A stretch of DNA of 64,000 nt, from the NCBI GenBank assembly GCA_045627765.1, contig JAZQOG010000036.1:1045-65044 (forward strand), read 5' to 3'. This document shows, piece after piece, positions 13,684-58,859 of the stretch. Positions within the stretch are counted from its first letter, which is position 1; each line of letters opens with the position of its first letter. The stretch is from Paludibacteraceae bacterium (GTDB lineage Bacteria > Bacteroidota > Bacteroidia > Bacteroidales > Paludibacteraceae). The notes beneath the pieces are model-generated. The model saw only the letters and a list, made by a program, of their open reading frames with translations. It did not search any database and had not been told where the DNA came from. Made by a program: the position numbers and the translations under genes.

Positions 13684-13715
13684 CTACTCCTCTACTCCTT
13701 TACTCCTCTACCCCC
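13684..13715 (-). repeat. 8-bp-period repeat CTACTCCT x4 (AGGAGTAG on the transcribed strand) in the pta-ackA 5' UTR
   Basis: ctactcct ctactcct ttactcct ctaccccc, lying between the -7 box (13729-13736) and ATG 13655. Confidence 0.85.
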
Positions 13716-19902: not shown

Positions 19903-19948
19903 TCTTTCAGGCGTTAGCCGATCCCTACTCCTCTACTCCTCTACTCCT
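19903..19948 (-). repeat. core motif TCTTTCAGGCGTTAGCCGATCC followed by CTACTCCT x3
   Basis: Same layout as 21440-21513 downstream of the 1745-aa gene. Confidence 0.85.
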
Positions 19949-27086: not shown

Positions 27087-27407
27087 TTAATGTTTAAAAT
27101 AATGTCCTACAACAAAACCAACAATACCGGCCAAACCTCCCATAATCGTACTTAATAATTCTCTTAAATCAGATGTATCTTTTAAAACTATGGGTATTAT
27201 AAAACTTACAAACACAACAGCAAAGAAGCCTAATATTATAAGTATCGCAACTTTGCTTCGTGTATCTTCTTGTTTTTTATTTATTTCCTGATCTCGTCCC
27301 AAAGATGTTTCTTGGTTGTCGCTATTGGCTTCTTGTGTTGGGGGATTAGGAGTGTCAACATTAGGAGTTGAAGGGGGTATACTTGATTTATTTTTATCGT
27401 TTTCCAT
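27087..27407 (-). CDS. hypothetical two-TM membrane protein (106 aa from ATG)
   Basis: The track start 27416 is TTG. The ATG at 27407 sits 1 nt after the upstream stop. The N-terminus is Pro/Asn/Gln-rich, followed by helices VAILIILGFFAVVFVSFIIPIVL and IMGGLAGIVGFVVGHYF. Confidence 0.55.
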   Translation of the reverse strand: MENDKNKSSIPPSTPNVDTPNPPTQEANSDNQETSLGRDQEINKKQEDTRSKVAILIILGFFAVVFVSFIIPIVLKDTSDLRELLSTIMGGLAGIVGFVVGHYFKH

Positions 27408-27408
27408 A

Positions 27409-27675
27409 TTATTCAAGATTTTGGTTATTTTTCTCTAATTCAATAAGACTGTCATTTGTTTCTATATCATGATTGGAGCAGATTATACTTTTTTGCGATT
27501 TATCTTTGGGCATCAAGCCCTGAAGACAACATTGAGTCATCATTCCGAAAAAAAATATAATTCCAACTGTTATACAAAACATTACTATCATTAAATGCGA
27601 TTCGTAATTTTCAAAGATCTTTTGTAATCTTTCCAATTTTGTTTTTTCTTTAGATTTAGAGTTTTCTTGATCCAT
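27409..27675 (-). CDS. hypothetical single-TM membrane protein (88 aa)
   Basis: Charged N-terminus, helix LMIVMFCITVGIIFFFGMM, Cys-rich juxtamembrane segment. Confidence 0.5.
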   Translation of the reverse strand: MDQENSKSKEKTKLERLQKIFENYESHLMIVMFCITVGIIFFFGMMTQCCLQGLMPKDKSQKSIICSNHDIETNDSLIELEKNNQNLE

Positions 27676-27702
27676 AATGATGAAAATTTAAAGTTATACA
27701 GA

Positions 27703-27963
27703 TTAGTTAGAAGGTATTGGATGAAGTTCACATTTTATTTCCTTCCCTTTGTCTAAAATGCCAATAAATGTTACTGCTGCATCAAATTCATGTTGACAAA
27801 TCGGGCATGTAAATTTTTGGAACATGTGATACTCATGATTTCCAGGGTATTCATCAGATTCACCATCATCATTAAAAGACTCCCAGTTAATATCTTCTGT
27901 ATTAACGTCTAAATTATGCCCACAAAATGGACACGTTACTTTTGCAAATAATTGTTTTGCCAT
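27703..27963 (-). CDS. hypothetical zinc-ribbon protein (86 aa)
   Basis: Two CPxC knuckles (CPFCGH, CPICQH) separated by an acidic loop. Confidence 0.55.
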   Translation of the reverse strand: MAKQLFAKVTCPFCGHNLDVNTEDINWESFNDDGESDEYPGNHEYHMFQKFTCPICQHEFDAAVTFIGILDKGKEIKCELHPIPSN

Positions 27964-28023
27964 ACTGATAAAAATTATAAAGGTTAGTATTATTGTGTTT
28001 GTTTTTTCTATTCTTTATTTATA

Positions 28024-28037
28024 CGCGTACGTACGCG
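28024..28037. repeat. perfect 14-bp palindrome CGCGTACGTACGCG
   Basis: Read directly from the sequence. It lies 61 nt upstream of the zinc-ribbon ATG. Confidence 0.9.
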
Positions 28038-28057
28038 AGGGTGTTATTTTGTTTTTT

Positions 28058-28092
28058 GCCCAAAAGTCTTTTGGGCTGAGGAGACAGGGTGC
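28058..28092. repeat. hairpin module H1, copy A
   Basis: GCCCAAAA-gtc-TTTTGGGC followed by TGAGGAGACAGGGTGC. Paired with copy B at 28590-28624. Confidence 0.85.
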
Positions 28093-28159
28093 ATTGTTTT
28101 TTTATGTTCTATTCCTTACTTTTTCTTCATTTTTACGAACACCGTTCGGTATTATAATA

Positions 28160-28205
28160 CCCTTTCCCTAGATACGGTTTTCCCGTTTCATCGGGACAAC
28201 CATGC
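28160..28205. repeat. hairpin module M2, copy A
   Basis: ccctttccctagatacggtt TTCCCG-tttcat-CGGGA caaccatgc. The first 27 nt are identical to copy B. Confidence 0.85.
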
Positions 28206-28235
28206 GGTCAGCTCTCGTGATTATCCTTGCTTGTG

Positions 28236-28331
28236 CCCACCCTGCATCTTACGTACATCCACCGAAGTGCTACCGAAGTTAGCATTGGTTGTACCCACCT
28301 TGCATCCTACGTACATCCACCGAAGTGCTAC
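28236..28331. repeat. 38-bp direct repeat x2 (36/38 identical) with a 20-bp spacer
   Basis: cccaccctgcatcttacgtacatccaccgaagtgctac at 28236-28273 and cccaccttgcatcctacgtacatccaccgaagtgctac at 28294-28331. A degenerate third copy lies at 28545-28577. Confidence 0.9.
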
Positions 28332-28500
28332 GTTAGTTGTTATTACTTTTTTACCATTTATCTCTTTTTCTGTCGCTACGCTATTAAAATCCATCGTAAG
28401 GGATGCGATAAAATCATTTTAGCACTTTTCTTTATTTCGCTGCGCTCAGAAATCTTACTTAAAATCTATTCAAAATCTTTACTAAAAATCTATTTTATTG

Positions 28501-28545
28501 CCCTTTCCCTAGATACGGTTTTCCCGTTAAGCGGGAACACCATGC
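28501..28545. repeat. hairpin module M2, copy B
   Basis: ccctttccctagatacggtt TTCCCG-ttaag-CGGGAA caccatgc. Confidence 0.85.
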
Positions 28546-28589
28546 CTACGTACATCCTACGAAGTGGTCGCGGTGGGTTCCTTGCTTGC

Positions 28590-28624
28590 GCCCGAAAAAC
28601 TTTCGGGCTGAGAGGACAGGGTGC
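28590..28624. repeat. hairpin module H1, copy B
   Basis: GCCCGAAA-aac-TTTCGGGC followed by TGAGAGGACAGGGTGC. Relative to copy A the stem carries a compensatory A:T to G:C change. Confidence 0.85.
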
Positions 28625-28798
28625 CAAGGACGATATGCCGCACACAAAAAGCGGCAATTCGCGTTCGGCAAATGGCTCGCACAGACGAAACCGGTACGCT
28701 AATTCGTAGAAGCGACCATTGCCTCCGCTCTCCCCACCGGGTGCACTGCGTTAGCGCCCGTCGGGGGCCCCAGATAACAGAGTTACACGCACAAAAAA

Positions 28799-28834
28799 GC
28801 GGTAACTCAGTTATCGTTTAACTGATATTACCGC
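28799..28834 (-). terminator. rho-independent terminator of the PIN operon (bidirectional geometry)
   Basis: GCGGTAA-ctcagttatcgtttaactgata-TTACCGC with an inner stem TCAGTTA/TAACTGA. A6 lies before it and A6 after it on the plus strand. Confidence 0.75.
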
Positions 28835-28855
28835 TAAAAAAGTATTTGTAAAAAA

Positions 28856-29275
28856 CTACTTCTTATTAAAAACCAAATCTAATCCTTGAGATCTATAAAA
28901 TTCAAAACGACTATCACTTGAAATAAGAGGTATCTTCTCTGTTAATGCTTGAGCAATAATGATGTGATCGGATGGATCTTTATGCCCCTGAACTTCATTC
29001 AAAGTCATTTTAGCATAAGTTTGTATATGCTCATATTTTATAGGAAGAAGAACTATGCTACTCTCTTTAATGCTTTGAACCATTTCGAACTCCGAGTTCC
29101 AAACATTTGCCCACAACCCTTTATTTCGATAGGCCAACACCAATTCTTTAAGAGACTCTATACTCATATAAAGTACATTGTCGTAATCTCTTAAGATAGC
29201 ATCTACATCCGAACTTAATTTGTCCGGTTCTACCATCATGTAAATGAAGATATTGGTGTCTATTAAGTATCGCAT
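28856..29275 (-). CDS. PIN-domain (VapC-like) ribonuclease toxin
   Basis: 139 aa. MRYLIDTNIFIY (Asp6), SIESLKEL, DPSDHIIIAQAL and LISSDSRF acidic positions are typical of PIN. Confidence 0.8.
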   Translation of the reverse strand: MRYLIDTNIFIYMMVEPDKLSSDVDAILRDYDNVLYMSIESLKELVLAYRNKGLWANVWNSEFEMVQSIKESSIVLLPIKYEHIQTYAKMTLNEVQGHKDPSDHIIIAQALTEKIPLISSDSRFEFYRSQGLDLVFNKK

Positions 29276-29564: not shown

Positions 29565-29596
29565 CTACTCCTCTACTCCTCTACTCCTCTACTCCC
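29565..29596 (-). repeat. CTACTCCT x4 (AGGAGTAG on the sense strand), containing the stop codon of the 103-aa gene
   Basis: ctactcct ctactcct ctactcct ctactccc. The ORF ends ...GVEE* inside the repeat. Confidence 0.9.
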
Positions 29597-42346: not shown

Positions 42347-43372
42347 ATGTCACGCATTCAAGACGAAAATAAAGTGTATGAGTTTTTTCGCCCGTTTGTA
42401 GATTGGATGTTCCGACATTCTTATCGGCATTTCCAATATGTAGGGCTGGAAAACATACCCCAAGATGGTGCTATTATTTTTGCGCCTAATCATACCAACG
42501 CCCTTTGTGACGCAATGTGTATCTTAGGCATTGACGGTCGGCGCAAAGTGTTTGTAGCTCGTGCCGATATCTTCAAAAATCCTAAACAAGCTAAGCTTCT
42601 CAATTTCTTCAAGATCCTTCCTATCAATCGCCTGCGCGATGGACTGGAGGCCGTTCGACATGACGATGAGACAATGGATAAGGCGGTGGAGGTGCTGAAC
42701 GATGGCGTTCCTTTCTGCATCCTACCCGAAGGTACACATCGCCCCAAACACTCGTTGCTGCCCCTAACAAAAGGAATCTTCCGTATCGCACTGAGAGCCA
42801 ACGATAAGTTCGGCCACGAAAAACCGGTTTATATCGTGCCGGTAGGATTGGAATATGGGGATTATTACCACCTATGGGACTCGCTGACGGTGAATATCGG
42901 TAAACCCATCAATGTGACGCAGTTCGTGAAGGATGTGCAAGCCAATGCGACAGTGGAACTGACGCAACCGCAGATCATCAATATGCTACGAGACGAACTG
43001 ACCGATCGCATGCGTGAACAGATCTTGTGGGTGCCCGACGATGAACATTACGAGGAGAATCTTAAGAAGTTACAAGAGAATCCACCCGCACCCTTTGATA
43101 AGTTCAAGAAGCATAGGATTCCGCGTTGGGCTCTGCTGATCTTACTTATATTGATGACACCCCTCTTTGTGGTGTGTGCTGCCGTGACATTACCTATCTG
43201 GCTGGTTTGGTTTATTATTCGTGGGAAGTTTAAGGATCCCGCCTTCCATAATTCTGTACAATATTTATGGCAACTGATTTGTATTCCGCTGTTGTTCTTT
43301 ATTCAAGCTCCCTTCTGGATCTTCTTCCAAGAGTACTTGTATCAAGTGCGACAGTATCAGAAGGGCGGATAG
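42347..43372 (+). CDS. PlsC-family (lysophospholipid) acyltransferase with C-terminal TM helices
   Basis: 341 aa. HX4D motif NHTNALCD and PEGTHR motif. Confidence 0.75.
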   Translation: MSRIQDENKVYEFFRPFVDWMFRHSYRHFQYVGLENIPQDGAIIFAPNHTNALCDAMCILGIDGRRKVFVARADIFKNPKQAKLLNFFKILPINRLRDGLEAVRHDDETMDKAVEVLNDGVPFCILPEGTHRPKHSLLPLTKGIFRIALRANDKFGHEKPVYIVPVGLEYGDYYHLWDSLTVNIGKPINVTQFVKDVQANATVELTQPQIINMLRDELTDRMREQILWVPDDEHYEENLKKLQENPPAPFDKFKKHRIPRWALLILLILMTPLFVVCAAVTLPIWLVWFIIRGKFKDPAFHNSVQYLWQLICIPLLFFIQAPFWIFFQEYLYQVRQYQKGG

Positions 43373-43395
43373 GCGGATAGGCGGAAAGGCGAATA
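43364..43395 (+). repeat. 8-bp-period GGCGGATA x4, which supplies the stop codon of the acyltransferase gene
   Basis: ggcggata ggcggata ggcggaaa ggcgaata. The TAG at 43370-43372 spans units 1 and 2. Confidence 0.9.
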
Positions 43396-44601: not shown

Positions 44602-44633
44602 GTAGAGGAGTAGAGGGGTAGAGGAGTAGGGTA
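44602..44633 (+). repeat. GTAGAGGA x4 (same family as CTACTCCT), starting 1 nt after the stop
   Basis: gtagagga gtagaggg gtagagga gtagggta. Confidence 0.9.
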
Positions 44634-47033: not shown

Positions 47034-49025
47034 TTAAGCTTTATAGTTACGTGTTTTACGTTCGGTGAATTCGTAGTCGAGAGGCTCTTTGATGAGTTCG
47101 GGTTCGCTGTCCTCACCGGTATATTTCCAGCAAGCAACATAACTGAACTTATCGTCTTGACGCAAGGCTTCACCTTCCTCCGTTTGATACTCCTCACGGA
47201 AGTGACCACCGCAAGACTCCTCACGGTTGAGAGCATCCACTGCCATCAAACGACCAATCTCAATGAAGTCACTCAGACGCAATGCTTTCTCCAATTCGTT
47301 GTTCAAACCATCGGCTTGACCCGGGATATAAACATTCGTCCAGAACTCCTTCTTGATAGCGTCAATCTTCTCGATAGCCGTCTTCAAACTTTCTGCCGTA
47401 CGACCCATACCTACGAAGTCCCACATAATAAGACCCAGTTCCTTGTGGATGGAATCTACAGAGCGTTTACCTTGAATAGCCATCAAGCGGTCAATCTTAT
47501 CTTGGATACCCTTCTCCGCTTGTGCGAACTCAGGTAGGTCGGTGGACATACGAGGTACACCAATCTGGTCAGAGAGGTAGTTCTGAATGGTATAAGGAAT
47601 AACGAAATAGCCGTCTGCCAGACCCTGCATCAATGCGGAAGCACCAAGGCGGTTCGCTCCATGGTCGGAGAAGTTAGCCTCACCAATACAGAACAGACCC
47701 TTGATAGAGGTTTGCAGTTCATAATCTACCCAGATACCACCCATCGTATAGTGGATAGCAGGGAAGATCATCATCGGGTTCTCGTAAGGATTCTCGTCCA
47801 CGATCTTCTCGTACATCTGGAAGAGGTTACCATATTTCTGCGCAACCACATCCTTGCCGAGGCGTTGGATAGCATCCGAGAAATCCAAGAACACTGCCAA
47901 ACCGGTGTTGTTCACACCATAACCCTTATCGCAACGCTCTTTAGCGGCACGCGAAGCCACATCACGAGGAACAAGGTTACCGAAAGCCGGATAACGACGC
48001 TCCAAGTAGTAGTCACGATCCTCTTCGGGGATATCACGACCCTTAATCTCTCCGCGTTGCAGTTTCTGCGCATCTTCGAGTTTCTTAGGAACCCAAATAC
48101 GACCATCGTTACGGAGGGACTCGGACATCAATGTCAGTTTAGACTGGAAATCACCATGCTTAGGAATACAAGTGGGGTGAATCTGTGCGTAGCAAGGGTT
48201 AGCAAAATAAGCACCCTTACGATAGATCTGCATCGCTGCCGAACCATTAGAAGCCATCGCATTCGTGGAGAGGAAGAACGTGTTACCATAACCACCGGAA
48301 GCGATGACAACGGCGTGACCGAAGTAACGCTCAATACGACCCGTCACAAGGTTACGAGCAATGATACCGCGAGCGCGTTCAACACCGTCAGCGTCCTTGA
48401 TGAGAACGACATCTAACATCTCGTGACGATTGTACATCTTCACTTTGCCTTTACCAATCTGACGACTCAATGCACTATAAGCACCGAGCAGCAGTTGTTG
48501 ACCGGTTTGACCCTTCGCATAGAAAGTACGAGATACTTGTGCACCACCGAACGAACGGTTGTCCAGCAGACCACCGTATTCGCGAGCAAAAGGAACACCC
48601 TGTGCCACACATTGGTCAATGATGTTGTTACTTACTTCTGCCAAACGATAAACGTTTGCTTCACGAGCGCGATAGTCGCCACCCTTGATGGTGTCGTAAT
48701 AAAGACGATAGATAGAGTCACCATCGTTTTGGTAGTTCTTCGCGGCATTGATACCACCTTGTGCAGCAATAGAGTGCGCACGACGAGGGCTATCTTGGAT
48801 GCAGAAGTTAAGGACATTAAAGCCCAACTCTGCTAAGGTAGCGGCTGCGGAAGCACCGGCCAGACCGGTTCCTACAACGATGATATCCAAACGACGTTTG
48901 TTGGCAGGATTGACCAGTTTTTGATGGTCCTTGTAGTTTGTCCATTTCTTCTCTAATGGACCCTGCGGAATCTTCGCCATCTCGGGCGTGATGATTTGCG
49001 CAGTTTCAGTTTTCTTTGTTGCCAT
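47034..49025 (-). CDS. frdA: fumarate reductase/succinate dehydrogenase flavoprotein subunit
   Basis: 663 aa. FAD motif [12 protein letters not shown], and [11 protein letters not shown] with the flavinylated-His context HS.AAQGG. Confidence 0.95.
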
Positions 49026-49030
49026 AAACT

Positions 49031-49084
49031 TATTTACTATTTGACAATTTACGATTTACCATTTACATTTTACCATTTATTTAC
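49031..49084 (-). repeat. GTAAAT-based 6-8-bp-period repeats filling the frdC-frdA gap. The frdC stop is part of the first unit.
   Basis: The sense strand reads gcGTAAATaaatgGTAAAAtGTAAATgGTAAATcGTAAATtgtcaaataGTAAATaagtttATG. Confidence 0.85.
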
Positions 49085-49779
49085 GCAAGCATCAATCCGA
49101 TGCCCATACCGAGGTAGTAGAAAACTACAATAGCGAAAGGAGCTACAACGAGGGAAGCGAAGATAGTACCAATCACTTTGATGCGTTTGAGCCAAATAAG
49201 ATTGCTCCAACCAAGGGTCTGAAGAGCAGACCAAATACCATGGTTGAGGTGGAGCCACAAAGCCGCTAACCAAATAAGGTAAAGCACGCACAGAACAATA
49301 CTCCAAACTCCATTGCCGGCGAACATAAACTTCACTAAACCGGCACCGTCTTGAGGATCAAAAGCACTGGTCTCAATGCCGGTCAACTCAGCAAACTGCA
49401 TCTTAAACCAGAAGTTAGCCAAGTGCAATACCAAGAACCCGATAACGCAGATACCCAGCACAAGCATGTTTTTTGACTCCCAATCTACGCCTTGCTGACG
49501 AGCGGTAACCGCATAACGGTCCGTACCACGAGCACGTAGGTTTTGGATGGTGAGATAAAAGGCATAGCAAAAGTGGACGAAGATAAGGAAAGCTAATCCT
49601 AACGTTCCCACAATTGCGTACCAGTTGGCTCCTAAAATGGAGCAGATCCAGTTATAAGCCTCCTCCGAAAAAACCAAAGCCACGTTCATGCAGCCATGGA
49701 AGAGCAGGAAAAAAACCAGACACAAGCCAGTAATACTCATTACGAGTTTACGACCAATAGATGAATCTTTTAACCACAT
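49081..49779 (-). CDS. frdC: fumarate reductase/succinate dehydrogenase cytochrome b subunit
   Basis: 232 aa with five TM helices and conserved His residues. First gene of the frdCAB order typical of Bacteroides. Confidence 0.8.
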   Translation of the reverse strand: MWLKDSSIGRKLVMSITGLCLVFFLLFHGCMNVALVFSEEAYNWICSILGANWYAIVGTLGLAFLIFVHFCYAFYLTIQNLRARGTDRYAVTARQQGVDWESKNMLVLGICVIGFLVLHLANFWFKMQFAELTGIETSAFDPQDGAGLVKFMFAGNGVWSIVLCVLYLIWLAALWLHLNHGIWSALQTLGWSNLIWLKRIKVIGTIFASLVVAPFAIVVFYYLGMGIGLMLA

Positions 49780-49851
49780 AATAAAATGGATTTTTAATGA
49801 TGAATTTATAAATGATGTATTTAATAATTGTTTTTTTCGTAATTAGGCGTG

Positions 49852-49859
49852 CAAAGATA
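49852..49859 (-). promoter_or_regulatory. -7 box TATCTTTG for frdCAB
   Basis: Plus strand reads caaagata. The -33 (caaa 49880-49883) lies 20 nt upstream. Confidence 0.7.
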
Positions 49860-49891
49860 CGAAAAAATTTGCATATATGCAAAAAAAGTTG

Positions 49892-49899
49892 TACTTTTG
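49892..49899 (+). promoter_or_regulatory. -7 box TACTTTTG for the glucosaminidase gene
   Basis: The -33 TTTG at 49868-49871 lies 20 nt upstream. ATG 49919. Confidence 0.7.
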
Positions 49900-49918
49900 T
49901 AGCAAATTTTGTGAAAAC

Positions 49919-50929
49919 ATGAAAAAATCCGTCCTTTTTTTGGCTCTTTTGAGCAGTTGTGCCCTATTTTCGGCACCCAATGCCAAGTATTTGAATTATA
50001 TTAACCAATGGAAACAAACTGCCCTTGAACAGCAAGTGCATTATGGTATTCCTGCCTCCATTACAATGGCACAAGGTCTATTAGAATCCGCGGCCGGTCA
50101 GTCCGAATTGGCACAAAATGCAAACAACCATTTCGGCATCAAATGTACCAGCGACTGGTTGGGCGGTTCGTACTACTACGATGACGACCGCAAAGGCGAA
50201 TGTTTCCGAGTGTATAATAGTGCGGAGGAGAGTTTTAAGGATCACTCGCTTTTCTTGCGTCGCGATCGATACGCGGCTTTGTTTGAGTTGGATATTGCGG
50301 ATTATCGCCGTTGGGCAAACGGGTTGAAAGCGTGTGGCTATGCTACTGATCCCAGTTATGCTACCAAACTCATTGCTATCATTGAGGATTATAGTCTGGA
50401 CACGTTAGTCGGACTGGCAGCCTCTATGCCCGTTGAGCCCACTACTGCAGCAACGCCAACGGTAACGACTACCGTTGCGGCAGCAACCACCATGGCAACT
50501 GCTGCGGCAGCGCCGACCATGGGTGAGGAATGGGTAACAGCACGCACCGCCAGAGAAGAACGCAATGCGTTTTATGCCGCTCACCCCAAAGAACGAGTAA
50601 ACCATACCTCTTATGTATTCGCGCGCGAAGGAGATAGTTATGCCACGATTGCCTATCAACTCAATATGAAAGAACGTAAACTGCGCAAATACAACGATGC
50701 TTTAGGACATATACTCAAACCGGGTGATAGGGTGTTTACAACCGTTAAACCACGTTATGTGAGAGGCGAAAAATCCGTGATGTGGGTTCATCCGGGAGAG
50801 AGCCTTTGGAGTATCAGCCAACGCGAAGGAATACAACTCAAGACAATCTATGAACTCAACGAAATCGACCCCTCAGTGAAGGTGTTTAAAACTAGACAGA
50901 AAATACTTCTTGGCAAGCCTAAGAAGTAA
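49919..50929 (+). CDS. GH73 N-acetylglucosaminidase with two LysM domains
   Basis: Trimmed from 49877 to MKKSVLFLALLSSC. GIPASITMAQGLLESAAGQSELAQNANNHFGIKC, an Ala/Thr linker, then two LysM-like repeats. Confidence 0.75.
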   Translation: MKKSVLFLALLSSCALFSAPNAKYLNYINQWKQTALEQQVHYGIPASITMAQGLLESAAGQSELAQNANNHFGIKCTSDWLGGSYYYDDDRKGECFRVYNSAEESFKDHSLFLRRDRYAALFELDIADYRRWANGLKACGYATDPSYATKLIAIIEDYSLDTLVGLAASMPVEPTTAATPTVTTTVAAATTMATAAAAPTMGEEWVTARTAREERNAFYAAHPKERVNHTSYVFAREGDSYATIAYQLNMKERKLRKYNDALGHILKPGDRVFTTVKPRYVRGEKSVMWVHPGESLWSISQREGIQLKTIYELNEIDPSVKVFKTRQKILLGKPKK

Positions 50930-50994
50930 TAGTTTAGAGTGGAGAGTTTAGAGTTTAGAGTTTAGAGTAGCCGTCTAGTTGGATAGTTGAAAGA
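50930..50994 (+). repeat. non-coding copy of the mini-element: GTTTAGAG repeats + AGCCGTCTAGTT core + GTTGAAAG
   Basis: tagtttagagtggagagtttagagtttagagtttagagtagccgtctagttggatagttgaaagaga. It fills the whole intergenic gap. Confidence 0.85.
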
Positions 50995-50996
50995 GA

Positions 50997-51281
50997 ATGA
51001 AGGGAACACAAAGTATAGGGCAGGCGATAATGGATTTTCTGAGAGAAAATCAATTGGAACAACCTCTGTTAGAGCGGAGGGTGGTGACTTTATGGGCTGA
51101 GTTGATGGGACCTACAGTGGCCGGTTTGACGCGTTCGGTGGATGTGCAGAATGGCGTGCTAAAAGTCAAGTTAAGTTCTTCGGCATTGCGTCAGCAGTTG
51201 TTTGAATGTCGGTTTGAGTTAGTGAAAAAGTTTAATGAGGCAGTGGGTGCCACTGTGATAAGAGATGTTCGTTTATCCTGA
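50997..51281 (+). CDS. DUF721 (DciA-like) small protein
   Basis: 94 aa. ...VVTLWAELMGPTVAGLTRSVDVQNGVLKVKLSSSALRQQL is a typical DUF721 pattern. Confidence 0.6.
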   Translation: MKGTQSIGQAIMDFLRENQLEQPLLERRVVTLWAELMGPTVAGLTRSVDVQNGVLKVKLSSSALRQQLFECRFELVKKFNEAVGATVIRDVRLS

Positions 51282-53610
51282 AAACATAGAATCTAAAATA
51301 GACTTTACGGCTATCCGTACTCAATTGATGGGCGCGTGTTCGTCCGTATTGGGACGCGAACAAGTGGAGCAGATTACGTTCTTGACAGACAAAGAGCGTA
51401 TCCTCTTTTTGTTGCGTGAGACAGAGGAACTTGGACATATCATGAGTGACGGTTCGCTCGATTTTCCTCGAGGGGATATCGCTGATGTGAGAGAGGCCGT
51501 TGGGCGAATACATGTGGTAGGATTATACCTCAATGAACAAGAACTGTTTGACTTACGTAAGACACTTGACTATGCAGGACGTTTGGACGAGTTCTTCCAA
51601 CATCTGGACGTTAATAGGTTCCCGATTTGGAGCAAATATAGTTTAGAGTTTAAAGTTGAAAGTTTAAAGAAGCCGTCTAGTTCGGAAGTTGAAAGTTTAA
51701 AAGATATTCTGCGTGTGATAGATAGGGTGCTGGATCGTTATGGTCAGTTGTCGGATTCGGCATCGCCGGAGTTGGCTCGTATCCGTAAAGACTTACGGCA
51801 AGCGCAAGGCAGTGCGAACCGAGCCTTGATGGGTATTCTGCGTCAAGCGCAAGCAGAAGGAATCGTCGATAAAGATGTAGCACCCACGATGCGTGAAGGG
51901 CGTTTGGTTATTCCCGTTCCGCCTGCTTATAAACGCAAGTTAGGAGGAATCGTACACGATGAGTCCGCTACGGGCAAGACGGTATATGTAGAGCCACAAC
52001 AGGTGGTAGAAGCAAATAACCGCATTCGCGAACTCGAAGGCGAAGAGGGACGCGAACGGATACGTATCTTACAAGCCGTGAGCGGAATACTGCGAGACCA
52101 GATGCCGTCTATTCACGAAGCGGAAAAACTATTGGCACACGTGGATTTGGTACGAGCCAAAGTGATTGTGGCGCAACAACAAAAAGCGATTATGCCTCAA
52201 GTGAGCGAGGAATCGATTATCGACTTACGCGAAGCGCGGAATCCGATACTCGAAAATAGTTTAAAGTTTAAAGTGGAAAGTTTAAAGAAGCCGTCTAGTT
52301 CTGAAGTGGAAAGTTTAAAAGTTATTCCGTTAGATATTAAATTAAAGAAAGAGAATCGTGTTCTCGTTATCTCGGGTCCGAATGCGGGAGGTAAATCGGT
52401 ATGTCTGAAGACGGTGGGGTTGTTGCAGTATATGTTGCAATGCGGTCTGCTTGTGCCTTTGCGAGAAGATAGTACAATGAGTGTGTTTGAGCACTTGATG
52501 ATAGATATCGGCGACGAGCAGTCGATGGAGGACGACCTATCGACCTATTCCTCTCATTTACGAAACATGAAAGCGTTTGTGCGTTATGCGAATGAACAAA
52601 CCTTACTGCTTATTGATGAGTTTGGAACCGGTACAGAACCGCTGTTAGGCGGTGCTATTGCGGAGGCGGTACTGTCGCAGTTAGTGGCGCAAGGCGCCTT
52701 TGGGGTGATCACGACCCACTACACGAACCTCAAACATTTTGCGGAAGTGACGGAGGGTGTGCAGAATGGGGCGATGCTCTATGACCGCGGACAACTCAAA
52801 CCGCTTTTCCAACTCTCGCAAGGTCAAGCGGGGAGTAGTTTTGCCATTGAGATAGCGCGTCAGATAGGGTTGCCGGAAACAATCATTGCTCAAGCCAGCG
52901 AACTGGTGGGCAGCGAACACATCGACTACGATAAATCCTTACAAGACATCGCGCGAGACAAGCGTTATTGGGAGAATAAACGACAAAACATCCGCCAACG
53001 GGAGAAACATCTGGAAGAGAAAATCGCTTTCTACGAAGGGGAGATAGCCGGTCTTAAGGCCAAGAAGAAAGAGGTGATGGCGAAAGCGCAAGAGGAGGCT
53101 GCGGAGTTACTCAAACAGAGTAATGCCACGATTGAACGAACGATTAGAGAGATAAAAGAAGCCAAAGCGGATAAGGAACGCACTCGCGCAGCAAGGGCTA
53201 AAGTGGAAAGTTTAAAGTTTAAAGTGGAAAAATCCGGAAATACCGGAAAATCCGGAGATTCAGGAAAGTCCGGTCAGAAGGTGCTGCATGATTTTAAGGA
53301 CTTGAAGCCGGTGGCGAAGTCGATGGCAGCGCAGAATCCGACAGTGAGCAATACCATTCGTCAGCATAAGTTGCGTTTTGAGCGCACATTGGATTTGCGA
53401 GGCTTGCGGGCTGATGAGGCATTGGAGCAGACGATCGCGTATATAGATGACGCTATCATGGTCGGAGCGGGCGAGGTGACGATCTTACACGGTACGGGTA
53501 CGGGCGCATTGAAACAGTTAGTGCGCGAATACTTGAAAAAACGCAAGTTAGACTTCCGTGATGGAGATATAGACCATGGTGGTGCGGGCGTGACGATGGT
53601 CGATTGTTAA
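51265..53610 (+). CDS. mutS2: endonuclease MutS2 (MutS domain V ATPase + C-terminal Smr)
   Basis: 781 aa. MFVYPENIESKIDF, Walker A GPNAGGKS, DEFGTGTEP, and Smr LDLRGLRADEAL...HGTGTGALK. Confidence 0.9.
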   Translation: MFVYPENIESKIDFTAIRTQLMGACSSVLGREQVEQITFLTDKERILFLLRETEELGHIMSDGSLDFPRGDIADVREAVGRIHVVGLYLNEQELFDLRKTLDYAGRLDEFFQHLDVNRFPIWSKYSLEFKVESLKKPSSSEVESLKDILRVIDRVLDRYGQLSDSASPELARIRKDLRQAQGSANRALMGILRQAQAEGIVDKDVAPTMREGRLVIPVPPAYKRKLGGIVHDESATGKTVYVEPQQVVEANNRIRELEGEEGRERIRILQAVSGILRDQMPSIHEAEKLLAHVDLVRAKVIVAQQQKAIMPQVSEESIIDLREARNPILENSLKFKVESLKKPSSSEVESLKVIPLDIKLKKENRVLVISGPNAGGKSVCLKTVGLLQYMLQCGLLVPLREDSTMSVFEHLMIDIGDEQSMEDDLSTYSSHLRNMKAFVRYANEQTLLLIDEFGTGTEPLLGGAIAEAVLSQLVAQGAFGVITTHYTNLKHFAEVTEGVQNGAMLYDRGQLKPLFQLSQGQAGSSFAIEIARQIGLPETIIAQASELVGSEHIDYDKSLQDIARDKRYWENKRQNIRQREKHLEEKIAFYEGEIAGLKAKKKEVMAKAQEEAAELLKQSNATIERTIREIKEAKADKERTRAARAKVESLKFKVEKSGNTGKSGDSGKSGQKVLHDFKDLKPVAKSMAAQNPTVSNTIRQHKLRFERTLDLRGLRADEALEQTIAYIDDAIMVGAGEVTILHGTGTGALKQLVREYLKKRKLDFRDGDIDHGGAGVTMVDC
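51638..51703 (+). repeat. 66-bp mini-element, in-frame copy 1 in mutS2
   Basis: atagtttagagtttaaagttgaaagtttaaagaagccgtctagttcggaagttgaaagtttaaaag, encoding SLEFKVESLKKPSSSEVESLKD. Confidence 0.9.
52256..52321 (+). repeat. 66-bp mini-element, in-frame copy 2 in mutS2 (62/66 identical to copy 1)
   Basis: atagtttaaagtttaaagtggaaagtttaaagaagccgtctagttctgaagtggaaagtttaaaag, encoding SLKFKVESLKKPSSSEVESLKV. Confidence 0.9.
53199..53277 (+). repeat. partial mini-element fused to a 9-bp-period TCCGGAAAA tract, in frame in mutS2
   Basis: aaagtggaaagtttaaagtttaaagtggaaaaa, then tccggaaat accggaaaa tccggagat tcaggaaag tccggtcag, encoding KVESLKFKVEKSGNTGKSGDSGKSGQ. Confidence 0.9.
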
Positions 53611-54734
53611 GCAAACAGGATAGATACGAGTTGTTGGCTCAGGGAATGAATGTCCCACGGAGCCAATATTTTTTTACGTTCTTCGATATGGTCTTGGGTG
53701 AAGGGTCGCGCCATCTTCTCTTGGCATAAAAGGGCTAATTCTTCCGGGGAGTTGCCTATGGAGCATGCACAAGCAAGAGTGGTTCCCACTAACATCGAAT
53801 CGTTCGCCACAATAAATCGTCCTTGATAGAGGGCGTTGATGAGTTTGAGTTTGATGCCCGTACCCTGGAATGTGAGCATCAAATGAATATGTGCGGTTGC
53901 AATCAGTTGGTGCATTCGTTCTTGAGAAGGATTATTGACAAGGCAGATATTTTTCTGTTTAGCACAAGCTTGTTGCAAGTGTTTCGATGCCCCTTTACCC
54001 GCGATGGTGATAGGAATTTTGGGGATAAGAGGGGCTACTTTTTCTGCAATATAGAGTGCTGCATAATCATTCTCAGCAACGGATAGATTGCCATGGTAGA
54101 GTATAAACTCGCCCTTTCCTAAAGCACTTTGCACTTGTTGGTTCTCGTGAAAACAGGGTAGGTAGTAAACGGGTACATTCGGGAATGATTGTCGGAAATG
54201 TTGTTCGTCTTGGTGAGCAAGGGCAAAAATACCATTGGCGTTTTGCAGAATGTTCTCAAAGCGTTTTAGGTGGTATGCTTCTATGTGAAAATAACATTTC
54301 TTCCATAGATGGGGCGTTGCTTTTCCTAAGGCATGATAGTAATCGTGCTCCACATTGCACTCCCTAAAGAACTTTTTGCGGTTGGCAAGTGCAGGATGAT
54401 TGAGGTAGAGACAATCCACCAATCCTTCAAACAGAATAGGTGCCTCGTCGGCTAATAAATGATTGATAAGTTCTTTATCTTCTCTGCTATTGACAGCCCA
54501 AGGCAGTCGAGAAAACAACTGCGAGAGTCTTAATTTACGTGGATAATAATAGACTTTGCGACAAAGGGATTCCAATTCGGGATGATGGCTCAACTCGCCC
54601 TTGTAGGTGCAGTGCAAGGTTATTTCTACTCCCGTTTGTGCGAGTGCTTGAATACGATAAAAAACATCAATGGCACCTCCGTAGGTGGGAGGAAAAGGAA
54701 TATCAAAACAGATGATGTGTAGTGCCTTGGTCAT
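53607..54734 (-). CDS. glycosyltransferase (GT4/GT1-like)
   Basis: 375 aa. N-terminus ICFDIPFPPTYGGAIDVF and a C-terminal sugar-donor-domain pattern. Confidence 0.6.
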   Translation of the reverse strand: MTKALHIICFDIPFPPTYGGAIDVFYRIQALAQTGVEITLHCTYKGELSHHPELESLCRKVYYYPRKLRLSQLFSRLPWAVNSREDKELINHLLADEAPILFEGLVDCLYLNHPALANRKKFFRECNVEHDYYHALGKATPHLWKKCYFHIEAYHLKRFENILQNANGIFALAHQDEQHFRQSFPNVPVYYLPCFHENQQVQSALGKGEFILYHGNLSVAENDYAALYIAEKVAPLIPKIPITIAGKGASKHLQQACAKQKNICLVNNPSQERMHQLIATAHIHLMLTFQGTGIKLKLINALYQGRFIVANDSMLVGTTLACACSIGNSPEELALLCQEKMARPFTQDHIEERKKILAPWDIHSLSQQLVSILFA

Positions 54735-55849
54735 AGCGATAGGAAGATTTGTTCAAACTGTTGTGCTTGATGTTGGCGGGTAAATTCGGCTTTATGTTGA
54801 ACGGCTTGTTGGGTAAAACCTTTGGTCTGCCATTCGTGATAGCGGTCTGAAATGAAAGGTTTGACTTCTTCTATAGAGGTGGCTGCGAGTCCGGCATTCG
54901 TATAGGCAAAAGCTTGTGCCAAACATTCCTCGTCGGATTCAATGAGCAGCTGTGGTTTCTCCACGCCCAATCCCTCAAAAAATTTCGTGGTCATGATACC
55001 ATGCGTGCCTTGCGGGTCGGATTTTTGCCCAAGGATAAGAAGAATAGAGGCCTGCTGCATGATGGTACTTATCTGTTCGCGTGGCACATAGTCATGGATA
55101 GTCAAATGGACATGGTATGGTTGTGCCATCTGTTTGAGTTCCTCTTCGCACTCGCTGCTTGTATAGAAATCTACATAGATATCGTGCATGGGTAATTGCG
55201 ATAGGGCTTCAAAGAGCATAAGCGGGTTGCGTTTTTCAAGCGAGTGTAACTGTCCAAGGTAGACGATGCGGAACGTGTCCGAAGGAGTTGCACAGGGGTG
55301 TATCTCGTTGACATCAAAGCCGTTGTAGATGCAATGGCAATGAGGGTTATATCGGCTGAGCGTTTGTTGATGCCAAGGGGAAACGGTAGTCACGGCTGCT
55401 GCTTGGTGAAGTACCCGATTGCGTCGGCATAAATGGTAGGCATCATAAAGGCGTTTGACTATCCTATCTAACCAAGCGCAAGGAAGGGTTCGTGTGTAGA
55501 ACCCTTTGGGTCCCCATTGTTCGCGGATGTCCCGTAAGTCGGTGACAAGAGGGCAGTGTAGCTGTTGGGCAATCTTACCGGCTGTTTGCAAGGGGAAATA
55601 GTGGTAGGTAGAACAAAAAACGAGGTCGAAGGACCGGTCTCCAATCGTTTGCAAGACATATTGAAGGTATCGTTTCTCTCGTCCTTGTGTGAGTAAGTCG
55701 AGCCATCCCGAACGACGAATAGATTGTGGCTCGGGTACTAACTGACAGTCCCATCCTTGTTGGATGAGGTATTGGACAAGGCTCATCACACGAGGAGAAT
55801 AAGCAGGCGGTTCGATGGCTTCACATAATATGAGGATGGATCGTTTCAT
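54731..55849 (-). CDS. glycosyltransferase-like protein
   Basis: 372 aa. GT-B-like N-terminus ILILCEAIEPPAYSPRV. ATGA overlaps on both sides. Confidence 0.45.
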   Translation of the reverse strand: MKRSILILCEAIEPPAYSPRVMSLVQYLIQQGWDCQLVPEPQSIRRSGWLDLLTQGREKRYLQYVLQTIGDRSFDLVFCSTYHYFPLQTAGKIAQQLHCPLVTDLRDIREQWGPKGFYTRTLPCAWLDRIVKRLYDAYHLCRRNRVLHQAAAVTTVSPWHQQTLSRYNPHCHCIYNGFDVNEIHPCATPSDTFRIVYLGQLHSLEKRNPLMLFEALSQLPMHDIYVDFYTSSECEEELKQMAQPYHVHLTIHDYVPREQISTIMQQASILLILGQKSDPQGTHGIMTTKFFEGLGVEKPQLLIESDEECLAQAFAYTNAGLAATSIEEVKPFISDRYHEWQTKGFTQQAVQHKAEFTRQHQAQQFEQIFLSL

Positions 55850-57057
55850 TGTTTATGGCTGCCAATAAGGTTAAGCAGTTCGGGATATAGTATGAGGTGA
55901 TAAAAATCGGTAAAGACATGGTTATGCCAGAGCAATGTCAGTTCCCCGTTGTATTGTTTGACTTTGTCTATCAAGGCTTGGCAATAGTAAAAGGCCTCTT
56001 GCTCATTGAGGTGCATATATGGCTCGTTTTGTAGGGTGCAGTCCATGATCGTTAAGGGGTGCAAAACAAGATTCGTGAGTTCAAACGTGACGGGATTGAT
56101 CCACCGCACAGGACGGGTCGTTTGTAAACGGAAACCGGCTTGATCGGCAAACCCCATCGTATAATCATCCGTTATACCGGCGGTGACTAACGCTTGCATC
56201 TTCTCGATGGAGCACCGCAAGAAATGACTGCGGTGCTTTTTTTCTAGATTGTCTAGATTTCCTAGGTTGTCTAGTTTTCCTAGATTTCCTAGTTCATAGT
56301 AACTGCTATGCAATCCCAAAAGGGCCCCATGCTCGGTGAGGTACTGAGCGAGCTGACGAAAGTCTTTGCCGCGCAGATTGTATTGCGGATAATCATAGCC
56401 TTTGCCGGAAGTGTTCTTGACAAAGTAGATGATCTTTGTTTGGGGCAGTTGTTTGACCACTTGTAGGTCTTGGTTCATCATCCATTCAAACGTGTAGGCG
56501 GGGTCGTTGTGAATCTCTTTCCACGCGGCAATCACATCTTTCCAATGTCCTCTTGAAAGCCCTCCAATAGCACCTCGCAGGTGGCGATAGCGGGTGAGAA
56601 TATCTATGTCGTGTGTGAGATTGATACCCGAAAATCCGGAAGGGAGTAATGGTAAATCCAATGCCTTCATGAGTACGCGACTATACTCGTCAATAAGCGG
56701 AATCATTAGGCGGTTGTTCTCTCCGAGAATAGAGTGTTGGGCTAAGAATCGTCCATGTTCATCCCGTTGCGGATTAATCAGTTCTTCTGCGCGAGAGATA
56801 AAGAAGGCGGTGTTGTAGATGATATCCGTTGTAAACACAATGGGGCCGTCCTTCGGACTGAAAGATTGCTGCGCTGTAAGACCCCCTTCAGCTGAAAGAT
56901 CAGGTAAAACCCAATCTTTGCCGAGGTGCCCATTGGCTTGAATGCAAACCCGATATCGGTAGCACTTCGTAGGATCTACGTTGTATGCAACTTGTTTGGC
57001 TGCCTCTTTATTTCCATAAAGAAGAAACTCAATAATATATTCTACAATCTCATCCAT
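55846..57057 (-). CDS. hypothetical protein of the polysaccharide cluster (possible deacetylase-like)
   Basis: The track start 57060 is TTG. ATG at 57057 gives 403 aa. INLTHDIDIL motif. Contains the in-frame LGNLGKLDNLGNLDNLEK repeat. Confidence 0.45.
   Translation of the reverse strand: MDEIVEYIIEFLLYGNKEAAKQVAYNVDPTKCYRYRVCIQANGHLGKDWVLPDLSAEGGLTAQQSFSPKDGPIVFTTDIIYNTAFFISRAEELINPQRDEHGRFLAQHSILGENNRLMIPLIDEYSRVLMKALDLPLLPSGFSGINLTHDIDILTRYRHLRGAIGGLSRGHWKDVIAAWKEIHNDPAYTFEWMMNQDLQVVKQLPQTKIIYFVKNTSGKGYDYPQYNLRGKDFRQLAQYLTEHGALLGLHSSYYELGNLGKLDNLGNLDNLEKKHRSHFLRCSIEKMQALVTAGITDDYTMGFADQAGFRLQTTRPVRWINPVTFELTNLVLHPLTIMDCTLQNEPYMHLNEQEAFYYCQALIDKVKQYNGELTLLWHNHVFTDFYHLILYPELLNLIGSHKQ
56244..56297 (-). 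repeat. 9-bp-period CTAGATTKY x6 inside the 403-aa ORF, in frame
   Basis: ctagattgt ctagatttc ctaggttgt ctagttttc ctagatttc ctagttcat on the plus strand. The sense strand encodes ELGNLGKLDNLGNLDNLE. Confidence 0.9.
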
Positions 57058-57070
57058 CAATTCATCATTT
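57057..57070 (-). repeat. third copy of the 14-mer AAATGATGAATTGA, between the ABC-F stop and the next ATG
   Basis: Plus strand reads tcaattcatcattt. The surrounding sense sequence is TGAATGATGGACTGATGAAATGATGAATTGATGG. Confidence 0.85.
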
Positions 57071-57080
57071 CATCAGTCCA

Positions 57081-58859
57081 TCATTCACTAAGGATCTCCC
57101 ACTCGTACATTTTCTGTTCGAGGGCGTGTTTGATATGTTCGTATTTGGCGAAGTTCTCTTGTGTTTGGTTAGCGGGGTCATTGAGGCTTAGCTCCATCGT
57201 TTTTTGTTGTTCTTCCAACTGAGCAATCTCTGCCTCTATTTCGGCTATCTGTTTCTCTTTTTTTCGTTTGGCTGCGGCTTGCGCTTTTTGAGCTTCGTAG
57301 TCGAGTTTAGATCCGGATTCTCCGGATATTCCGGATTTTCCGGTTTTCTCGGGGGACTTCTCCAACTCTTGTAGAGAACTCATCTTTTTTCTACGTAGGA
57401 AGTCGTAGATTCCCCCGATGTGTTCGCGCACTTTGCCTCCACCGAACTCATACACTTTTTGTACAAGTCCATCGAGGAAATCGCGGTCGTGGCTGACACA
57501 AATCACTGTCCCATCGAAGTCTTGTAGTGCTTGTTTGAGTACATCTTTTGAGGGCATATCGAGGTGGTTGGTAGGCTCGTCAAGGATGAGTAGGTTACAG
57601 GGTTCGAGCAGTAGTCGTATCATCGCTAAGCGGCTGCGTTCGCCTCCACTAAGCACTTTGACTTTCTTGTCGGAAGCCTCGCCACCGAACATGAAAGCAC
57701 CTAAGATATCGCGAATCTTAGTCCGTATATCGCCTACGGCGACGCGGTCGATGGTATCAAAAACAGTTTGCGTTTCGTCTAAGAGTGAGGCTTGGTTTTG
57801 AGCAAAATAGCCTATCTTGACATTATGTCCAATCTTGAGTGTTCCCTCATAATCGAGTTGACTCATGATACAGCGCACGAGGGTGGTTTTACCTTCTCCG
57901 TTTTTTCCGACAAACGCCACTTTCTCTCCACGTCGAATGGTGAGGTTAACATCTTGAATGACGGTGTGGTCGCCAAAGGCTTTGGTGAGGTCTTGAATGA
58001 TGACGGGAAAATCCCCACTGCGTGGAGCAGGCGGAAAACGTAGATTGAGTCGAGAGGTGTCTTCAAGATCCACTTCGAGACGTTCGAGTTTATCGAGTTG
58101 CTTGATACGCGATTGTACTTGTACGGCTTTGGTGGCTTTATAGCGGAAACGTTCGATAAAATCTTCCGTCTCTTGAATCATTTTTTGTTGATTGAGGTAA
58201 GCGCGTACCTGTTGGTCGTGTCGTTCTTGGCGAAGGGCAACGAACTTGGAATAGGGTACATTATAATCGTAGATACGACCAAGAGTGATCTCAATGGTTC
58301 GGCGGGTGATGTTATCGATGAAAGCGCGGTCGTGGCTGACTACGATGACGGTCATGTTGCTGGCATTGATAAAGTCTTCGAGCCATTGGATAGACTCAAT
58401 GTCAAGGTGGTTGGTAGGCTCATCTAAGAGGAGCAGGTCGGGGTGCTGAAGTAGGATCTTGGCTAATTCAATACGCATCCGCCAACCTCCTGAGAACTCT
58501 GTGCAAGGGCGATGGAAGTCTTTGCGCTCAAACCCAAGACCGATGATTGTGCGATCCATCTCCGCAATGAAACGGGCTTGGTCTTCTCCTTGGAAGATCG
58601 TCATCACTTCTTCTTGAAGGGTATTACCATCCTTATGGAGCATCACCTGTGGTAGGTAACCGATGGTGAGGTCGTTATCTCGTGCGATAGTGCCCGATGT
58701 AGGGGTATATTCGCCCGCAATGAGGCGGAGAAGGGTTGTTTTGCCTGCTCCGTTCTTTCCGACCAAGGCGATACGGTCTTTCTTGTTGACGAGGAAAGAG
58801 ATATCGTTGAGGATGGGTCGTGCCGAAAACTCAATGCTAAGATGTTCGATAGATAACAT
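57081..58859 (-). CDS. ABC-F family ATPase (two ABC domains, no TM domain)
   Basis: 592 aa. Walker A GKNGAGKTTLL and GKNGEGKTTLV, signatures FSGGWRMR and LSGGERSR, and a C-terminal coiled-coil. Confidence 0.9.
   Translation of the reverse strand: MLSIEHLSIEFSARPILNDISFLVNKKDRIALVGKNGAGKTTLLRLIAGEYTPTSGTIARDNDLTIGYLPQVMLHKDGNTLQEEVMTIFQGEDQARFIAEMDRTIIGLGFERKDFHRPCTEFSGGWRMRIELAKILLQHPDLLLLDEPTNHLDIESIQWLEDFINASNMTVIVVSHDRAFIDNITRRTIEITLGRIYDYNVPYSKFVALRQERHDQQVRAYLNQQKMIQETEDFIERFRYKATKAVQVQSRIKQLDKLERLEVDLEDTSRLNLRFPPAPRSGDFPVIIQDLTKAFGDHTVIQDVNLTIRRGEKVAFVGKNGEGKTTLVRCIMSQLDYEGTLKIGHNVKIGYFAQNQASLLDETQTVFDTIDRVAVGDIRTKIRDILGAFMFGGEASDKKVKVLSGGERSRLAMIRLLLEPCNLLILDEPTNHLDMPSKDVLKQALQDFDGTVICVSHDRDFLDGLVQKVYEFGGGKVREHIGGIYDFLRRKKMSSLQELEKSPEKTGKSGISGESGSKLDYEAQKAQAAAKRKKEKQIAEIEAEIAQLEEQQKTMELSLNDPANQTQENFAKYEHIKHALEQKMYEWEILSE
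57312..57347 (-). repeat. 9-bp-period TCCGGATTY x4 inside the ABC-F gene, in frame
   Basis: The sense strand aaaaccggaaaatccggaatatccggagaatccgga encodes KTGKSGISGESG. It shares ACCGGAAAATCCGGA with mutS2 53242-53256. Confidence 0.9.

Follow-up and report, generated by a model that had tools for sequence, protein, structure and literature searches.

The window analysed here, a stretch of 64,000 nt from a Paludibacteraceae bacterium (contig JAZQOG010000036.1 of assembly GCA_045627765.1), carries in and next to the mutS2 gene several copies of a short element that is built of GTTTAGA-type heptamers around a 12-nt core. We are confident that this element is a non-autonomous, non-palindromic small dispersed repeat, which was inserted secondarily, is kept at gene junctions and in protein loops, and is remodelled fast. 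It is lineage-specific to a small clade of uncultured gut Paludibacteraceae. For its copying we tentatively propose template switching or ectopic gene conversion, independent of a transposase. This mode is possible; the explanation as a whole, identity and copying taken jointly, is the best one we have and in our opinion a probable one.

Two 66-bp segments of the window, first noticed in a preliminary description of this DNA, share 62 of 66 positions, and both lie in frame within the intact mutS2 open reading frame (ORF), as that description stated. The locus has the following features, all on the forward strand:

49877-50929: glucosaminidase/LysM gene, its stop codon directly 5' of the non-coding copy
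50930-50994: non-coding copy of the element, filling the entire gap between the glucosaminidase gene and dciA; core at 50969-50980
50997-51281: dciA (PF05258), its start codon directly 3' of the non-coding copy
51265-53610: mutS2, the intact host ORF (781 aa); MutS_V and Smr domains (homologues carry both)
51638-51703: in-frame copy 1 (MutS2 site 1), after FPIW; core at 51671-51682; encodes SLEFKVESLKKPSSSEVESLKD
52256-52321: in-frame copy 2 (MutS2 site 2), between NPIL and PLDIK; core at 52289-52300; encodes SLKFKVESLKKPSSSEVESLKV
53199-53231: heptamer run (MutS2 site 3); encodes KVESLKFKVEK and overlaps a native conserved MutS2 motif
53229-53273: AAATCCGGA nonamer array, in frame (SGNTGKSGDSGKSG); a separate short-tandem-repeat family joined to the heptamer run

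The MutS2 protein of the window is alignable over its full length to Bacillus subtilis MutS2 (8qpp/7qv3), and copy 2 is situated immediately ahead of the Walker A strand. The non-coding copy is bounded by the stop codon at 50927-50929 and the dciA ATG at 50997. It consists of TAG, five heptamers (one of them GTGGAGA), GT, the core AGCCGTCTAGTT, GGATA, and GTTGAAA. That it fills the gap had been recognized correctly, but the unit proposed for it, an 8-mer GTTTAGAG repeated four times, has to be replaced by heptamers: the repeat unit according to Tandem Repeats Finder is 7 bp (GTTTARA / GTKGARA). Cores are found in the window at 50969, 51671, and 52289; chance would give 0.22 occurrences, and none of 100 shuffled sequences reaches three. 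Similarly, GTKGAAAGTTTAAA occurs seven times with an expectation of 0.08. The window's own genome is visible over these 64 kb, within which all copies fall into 2.4 kb and all cores into 1.4 kb.

The wider family was collected by a scan of one genome per species (185,579 species) with the pattern AGCCGTCTAGTTNNNNAGTKKARAG. This yielded 88 stretches, of which almost all come from five Paludibacteraceae metagenome-assembled genomes (MAGs). Together with the window they contain 112 exact cores, all of one architecture: 43 in JAZLHD, 35 in JAKSNF, 17 in JAKSNE, seven in JAZRWG, four in JAZLMS, one in each of three other MAGs, and three in the window. After merging of orthologous and tandem copies about 79 distinct sites remain. 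Thus the dispersed element proposed from the window alone does occur elsewhere, including in frame in at least nine other conserved genes; its dispersal is established in close relatives (94-95% MutS2 identity).

The family consensus reads TA, four GTTTAGA-type heptamers, G[A/T], AGCCGTCTAGTT, five variable bases, GTTTAGA, and GTT. Its length is about 59-61 nt, one or two heptamers stand to the right of the core, and the information content drops to background on either side. Exactly four left heptamers are present in 65 of the 112 copies. Heptamer variants depend on position: GTGGAGA was found 18 times at position -3 and 0-5 times at the other positions. The fixed number of heptamers and the position-specific GTGGAGA argue for the copying of an entire composite unit, about 60 nt long, and against separate growth of the arrays at each locus. 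In the loci examined the core was never found outside the heptamer frame; coreless arrays of the same build are also common.

Pattern scans of viral contigs from IMG/VR did not find the element. In metagenomes from JGI the pattern had a single match, which we regard as chance because the heptamers are missing. One typical copy (L037) lies on a 5.6-kb contig binned to another family, JAGHTK010000126.1, labelled Candidatus Alistipes equi (horse gut); this contig is either mis-binned or the result of a transfer.

Secondary insertion follows from sites that are filled in some genomes and empty in others. The MutS2 sites were compared by an alignment of 120 homologues and at the DNA level. At site 1 the element is restricted to a clade of at least 85% identity; the short native linker YNAEQSLPLKD stands in its place in P0017/18 and P0020-24. 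Filled versions of site 2 are limited to the window, P0003-6, and P0011; P0001 and P0002 retain a heptamer-only remnant. Most orthologues at 80-88% identity read NPVL-AQKKEV-VPLDIK there with no insert, and B. subtilis MutS2 (8qpp) is gapped, in agreement with the earlier remark that this segment is normally short. More distant Paludibacteraceae MutS2 proteins have nothing homologous to the segments at either site. Since orthologues show empty sites, the alignments identify both segments as secondary insertions and not as ancestral linkers. Each copy was initially thought to add exactly 22 codons. Relative to empty-site orthologues the net gain is smaller: site 1 is 14 codons longer and site 2 is 18 codons longer, the element having taken the place of a few codons of the native linker.

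Site 3 had been described as a partial third copy. The heptamer run and the adjoining nonamer array are there, but they are not simply a truncated element: the motif K-V-E-S-L-K-x-K-V-E is kept in distant MutS2 proteins, so at least part of the heptamer-like DNA at this site is native. In the relatives JAZRWG and P0005, 6, 10, 12, and 13, site 3 carries a full element including the core.

The one clean pair of an empty and a filled site is the junction upstream of dciA. In L089 (P0018 genome) this junction is empty and consists of an ATGA stop/start overlap (CCAAAGAAATGAAGGG). In L044 (JAKSNE) it is filled, reading AAA, the element (TAGTTTAGAG...GAGA), and TGAAGG, with at most 1 nt of ambiguity relative to L089. 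The insertion in L044 regenerates both the stop codon and the ATG. No target-site duplication is present at this pair (at most 1 nt), the other pairs being too diverged to read. Versions of the element occupy the same junction in L012, L044, L007, L092, and L091, and JAZRWG has a short remnant only. Comparison of L062 with L079 shows that the element took the place of a 26-nt overlap of two genes, where it provides a stop codon inside a GTTGAGA unit and a probable TTG start. The start of dciA itself alternates in the relatives between ATG and a TTG within heptamer-like GTTGAAA.

Most sites are gene junctions. According to gene calls made with a simple greedy ORF procedure, 38-39 sites lie between co-directional genes in the sense orientation to both, 12 lie between co-directional genes antisense to both, and two lie between convergent or divergent genes. 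Convergent and divergent gaps are therefore depleted relative to the expected 30% (p = 5e-6), and the sense orientation is favoured 38:12 (p = 3e-4). At 31 of 39 sites the upstream stop codon is within the element or at its edge, typically as the TAG of the first heptamers, and at 26 of 39 the downstream start codon is no more than 25 nt away. Three GTTTAGA units put TAG in all three frames, and their complement puts TAA in all three. At junctions the element can also supply A, TTG, or GTG toward the next start codon. The left flank is conserved as TTA or TA. Blocks of 8 kb that hold at least two separate sites occur about three times as often as under random scatter, for an assumed genome size of 2-3 Mb. 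In the window, five of the eight co-directional gaps of 20-70 bp are short-tandem-repeat arrays, the heptamer copy included.

About 15 sites are located inside ORFs of conserved genes, in either orientation. The Pfam-confirmed hosts are an MBOAT protein (two sites), a DUF7033 protein, UDP-galactopyranose mutase (GLF, Glf), a YggS-like PLP enzyme (Ala_racemase_N), IspG/GcpE, an FAD-dependent protein, an Rce1-like CAAX protease, DNA polymerase I (DNA_pol_A), and the neighbouring glucosaminidase (Glucosaminidase), whose linker carries a composite element in frame in JAKSNF and JAZRWG. Sense copies would encode a low-complexity peptide of about 20 residues, SLxFKVESLKKPSSSEVESLK. Antisense copies would encode QLSTNKLDGFSKLSTLNSKL, with the predicted in-gene antisense reading (Q)LSTNKLDGFSKLSTLNSKL. 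Examples of predicted peptides across the insert junctions of mutS2, ispG, and polA are ...VESLKKPSSSEVESLK... and ...LSTNKLDGFSK....

The positions of these inserts are ones that the proteins appear to tolerate. The 20 insert residues of IspG are matched by a clean gap of 20 residues in the Aquifex structure 3noy, and the insert of DNA polymerase I is in an unaligned segment between the 5'-nuclease and polymerase domains. In the AlphaFold2 model of the window MutS2, the predicted confidence (pLDDT) is below 50 at residues 129-140 (site 1) and 651-692 and 53-62 at residues 331-350; all three MutS2 sites are low-confidence segments of the model and gaps relative to B. subtilis MutS2. Among 88 intergenic copies, any open frame over the central 57 nt was found in 13; the sense frame used in MutS2 is open in none of the 88, and the antisense frame used inside genes is open in seven. 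All 22 in-ORF copies are open. All sense-strand in-ORF copies are confined to the 3.5-kb stretch of the glucosaminidase gene, dciA, and mutS2, which points to local spread of a rare open variant.

Two other accounts of the in-ORF copies were considered. An alternative genetic code with read-through of TAG is ruled out, as every in-ORF copy avoids in-frame TAG and TAA. Intron- or intein-like removal has no supporting feature, and all allelic indels are multiples of three.

The anatomy of the element does not fully match any of the closest known classes of small repeats. The consensus contains no terminal inverted repeats; its ends are direct (TAGTTTAGAG...TAGTTTAGAGTT). An inverted-repeat search detected trivial TTTAAA palindromes only, in A-type copies. 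Folding of both RNA strands and of the consensus gave z-scores from -1.4 to +1.1 relative to shuffled sequences, the antisense strand reached only -1.5 kcal/mol, and no hairpin was seen. A search of window positions 49000-58000 against Rfam gave no match, the sole entry being noise (E = 0.71). As terminal inverted repeats, a hairpin, and a target duplication are all missing, the element is by anatomy not a MITE (miniature inverted-repeat transposable element), a repetitive extragenic palindromic (REP) sequence, or a Rickettsia palindromic element (RPE). A REP or REPIN identity in particular was rejected, since there is no imperfect palindrome or hairpin inside the element. Mutagenesis of the kind seen in diversity-generating retroelements was also ruled out: heptamer positions 3, 4, and 6 vary, but the changes are T/G and A/G alternations and not A-to-N. 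Searches of the literature by literal sequence and by topic, including repeats of Paludibacteraceae, found no description of the element. This agrees with the preliminary description, to which no equivalent was known in Bacteroidales.

By analogy, the closest relatives in behaviour are RPEs, and the closest in anatomy are heptamer arrays. RPEs add a conserved peptide in frame to unrelated conserved genes at protein-tolerated positions (PMC10969869), and the present element is likewise small, confined to one lineage, and recurrent in frame in unrelated conserved genes. The comparison with RPEs, drawn already when the copies were first noticed, thus stands for behaviour but fails for anatomy. 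RPEs are palindromic, about 100-150 bp long, and found in Alphaproteobacteria, whereas the present element has about 60 bp without a palindrome or hairpin, consists of tandem heptamers around a unique core, is mostly intergenic, and can give two peptides, both strands being usable in ORFs. Among heptamer arrays, cyanobacterial heptamer repeats and small dispersed repeats have reportedly been described by Mazel in 1990 and by Elhai in 2008. In Beggiatoaceae, cyanobacteria, and five Bacteroidetes, among them Paludibacter, arrays of TAACTGA precede start codons by a few nucleotides, and it has been proposed that they act in the regulation of translation (PMC4679880). They resemble the present element in being stop-containing tandem heptamers that are mostly intergenic, forward, near a start codon, occasionally in ORFs, and phylogenetically patchy. 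However, they are pure arrays of another heptamer with variable length, whereas here a fixed number of heptamers frames a 12-nt core, which is at a fixed position in 112 of 112 copies; this also separates the element from the pure arrays of the short tandemly repeated repetitive (STRR) type.

The cyanobacterial STRR, the small dispersed repeats, and the long simple sequence repeats (LSSR; Mrazek 2007, as cited in PMC4679880) share with the element lineage-enriched arrays of heptamer period and the nesting of short units. They belong to another phylum, and a core-plus-array unit or a systematic filling of junctions is not known to have been described for these families. MITEs (<500 bp), REP sequences and BIMEs, and Correia elements are also short, multi-copy, dispersed, non-autonomous, and mostly intergenic, and BIMEs are mosaics of modules; the present element differs in having no terminal inverted repeats, no target duplication, and no stable stem-loop. 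Borg tandem repeats are reported to be fast-evolving, to occur between genes and in frame, and to form disordered protein segments, but to arise independently at each locus, while the present composite unit recurs at about 79 loci (bioRxiv 10.1101/2022.05.18.492195). As the defining features of each of these systems fail, we assign the element to none of them.

Once in place, copies change quickly. The window and L092 are 98% identical, with 12 mismatches over the 2540 bp downstream of position 51070. Four of the 12 lie within 15 bp of the copy-1 heptamers, and all four are changes from G-type to A-type. Copy 2 of L092 and JAZLHD lacks 33 bp between 14-bp direct repeats GTGGAAAGTTTAAA. Tandem dimers of the element occur in L004, L012, and L069. 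An extra module with a hairpin, GTTCTCTGCCCYRRRGGGCGCGATCGGCAAGCCGTATAGAG (module B), is present or absent at the same sites across genomes, and the core is decayed at orthologous sites, e.g., to AGTCGTCTAGTT, AGCCGACTGGTT, or AGCCGTATAGTT. MutS2 site 1 contains GGCGACA heptamers in JAKSNF and 24-bp repeats in JAZRWG. Near 51066 the identity of the window to L092, its closest relative, rises from about 95% to about 99%, suggestive of a recombination boundary within dciA.

We propose that the unit would be copied to many sites by template switching during replication or by ectopic gene conversion, primed by short homology to its AGTTTA and GTTGAAA ends and acting preferentially over short distances. 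Copying over short distances would account for the cluster of four copies around mutS2. Copies survive where they do little harm, mostly at co-directional gene junctions; within genes they survive only in permissive loops and linkers, and only as rare variants without a stop codon in the host frame. After insertion they are altered by deletion between their own direct repeats, concerted changes of heptamers, tandem duplication, and gain or replacement of other modules. Copying without a transposase is consistent with the lack of terminal repeats and target duplication, with the local clustering and the concerted heptamer changes, and with native sequence at the MutS2 sites that looks like heptamers (GTTTTAG, AGTCTT, AAAGTGGAAAG). 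Native ATGAAGG likewise looks like a heptamer.

Several observations weigh against this account. We infer the copying mechanism, having caught no donor-recipient pair, and the homology at junctions is anecdotal, being inseparable from chance at 15-25% divergence. All relatives are MAGs, and genome sizes had to be assumed in the clustering test. Translation of the inserts is something that we infer from intact reading frames. The occupancy of the MutS2 sites on a neighbour-joining tree built with the sites masked is patchy and does not follow the gene tree, which would imply allelic recombination or repeated change; recombination between strains therefore confounds the history of gains and losses. 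At 11 of 79 sites, compared with 1.3% of random positions, the element has a perfect hairpin of at least 6 bp adjoining its left end, which could indicate a structure-directed enzyme. Finally, the 38:12 orientation bias and the co-directional location are also expected from a selected function.

Such a function underlies the main competing explanation, which we consider unlikely: the element would be a selected intercistronic module, either a stop-rich unstructured spacer or a site for a post-transcriptional regulator, that uncouples or re-initiates translation between genes of an operon, with the in-gene copies as by-products. Bacteroidota initiate translation without Shine-Dalgarno sequences. 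Of 52 classifiable intergenic sites, about 50 are co-directional, and the sense bias and the proximity of start codons given above would be expected of such a module. So would the RNA, which folds like shuffled sequence and would be unstructured, and the prevalence of repeat arrays in the co-directional gaps of the window. The TAACTGA arrays near start codons, with their proposed translational role, are a published analogue (PMC4679880). Yet one in four intergenic copies is antisense, the core is subject to decay at orthologous sites, and about 15 sites are inside coding sequence in either orientation. Moreover, the same gaps in sister genomes carry unrelated arrays (GGATTGA, GTTTAGCAG) or nothing but an ATGA overlap, so no specific sequence is needed at the junctions. 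Still less probable is mobilization by an enzyme, whether as a MITE or as a miniature element of an IS200/IS605-type single-stranded or other hairpin-directed system with the partner gene elsewhere. The element is dispersed, of fixed length, copied as a unit, and cleanly present or absent; it is asymmetric, biased in orientation, and preceded by conserved TTA or TA, and hairpins at its left end are ten times commoner than at random positions. IS200/IS605 elements likewise have neither terminal inverted repeats nor target duplications. However, the consensus has no internal subterminal hairpins either, and the flanking hairpin sequences vary between sites, so a transposase could not read them as the ends of the element. 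The clean empty/filled pair shows at most 1 nt duplicated, and no longer element with these ends was found in 628 kb of related loci, in which no systematic search for transposases was made.

Two further readings receive very little weight. Only the 12-nt core of the element is non-repetitive, and it shares GCCGTCT (7 nt) with the Neisseria DNA uptake sequence, GCCGTCTGAA. It is nevertheless highly improbable that the core is an uptake-type or other protein-recognition sequence to which the heptamers are incidental. Uptake sequences number hundreds to thousands per genome, but the MAGs have 4-43 exact cores; in view of these copy numbers the shared heptanucleotide is probably a coincidence. 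In addition, the core is never without its heptamer frame in the loci examined and decays at orthologous sites, while coreless arrays are common. One might suspect a duplication confined to mutS2, or else an ancestral linker of MutS2, because the cores of the window are confined to 1.4 kb, the translatable sense variants cluster around mutS2, and KVESLKxKVE at site 3 is native. This reading is refuted by the 112 copies at about 79 sites in relatives, the empty sites 1 and 2 of orthologues, and the presence of the same unit in frame in at least nine unrelated genes.

A non-autonomous dispersed repeat of this kind has consequences for both genes and genomes. In-frame colonization of genes by small repeats, so far documented best in Rickettsia, is now seen in Bacteroidota with a non-palindromic, tandem-repeat anatomy. 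IspG, DNA polymerase I, and MutS2 carry low-complexity inserts of 20 residues; as essential enzymes tolerate them, the element provides proteins with a natural source of new linkers. It also rebuilds gene junctions by breaking stop/start overlaps and supplying new stop and start codons. Because sister genomes differ at the same sites, the clade could show how bacterial short tandem repeats arise, are copied, and are replaced. In practice, such repeats will affect the annotation, alignment, and MAG assembly of gut Bacteroidales.

The element sits within a broader abundance of repeat cassettes with periods of 7 to 9 in this clade. The DUF7033 gene of the window contains one of them:

56240-56292, forward strand: nonamer array (TTTCCTAGA / TTGTCTAGA), in frame, antisense; shares GTCTAGTTT with the core

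At this 'HSSYY' site of DUF7033, JAKSNF and JAZRWG have an antisense heptamer-core element exactly where the window has the nonamer array, and L089 and L091 have in-frame CTACTCCY octamers. The clade may possess a templated, transposase-independent insertion process that repeatedly seeds cassettes of period 7-9 at junctions and in permissive loops, an idea that we hold to be doubtful. Candidate processes would be fork stalling with template switching or repair by an unrecognized polymerase or reverse transcriptase. If this is true, the heptamer-core unit would be the most recognizable product of a general generator of intercistronic spacers and disordered linkers, and the occurrence of unrelated repeat families at the same sites in sister lineages would be explained.

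Other repeats were observed along the way. Arrays of the octamer CTACTCCT form a second dispersed family, with copies in the window at 13684-13711, 19925-19948, and 29565-29595 and a reverse complement at 44602-44629; the same octamer is in frame at the DUF7033 'HSSYY' site of L089 and L091. Co-directional gaps of the window at 43364-43395, 44602-44629, 49032-49079, and 57055-57085 are filled with other arrays (GGCGGATA, GTAGAGGA, ATTTACA, and CATCATTT), and the rest of its co-directional junctions are overlapping or shorter than 12 bp. The AAATCCGGA unit recurs reverse-complemented at 57312-57348, in frame in an ABC-F ATPase ORF (57081-58859), and an AAGGACA heptamer array (1839-1868) is located inside the ORF 1397-3442. 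A 1.4-kb region of the window without a called ORF (27407-28856) contains direct repeats of 58 nt and 38 nt (28221-28336 and 28150/28491). Small GC-rich hairpin modules (e.g., GTACGCCCTTTGGGCTAGT) are nested in heptamer arrays or directly follow them, as seen in L023 compared with L082 and in L088 at 4097-4477. Finally, L003 (JAKSNF) differs from L019 at position 5819 by a clean 179-bp insertion in which GGTGAGA heptamers are combined with a duplicated hairpin module and about 14 heptamers of the AAACAAG/AAACGAG type; close species thus also gain or lose other mosaic cassettes of repeats.

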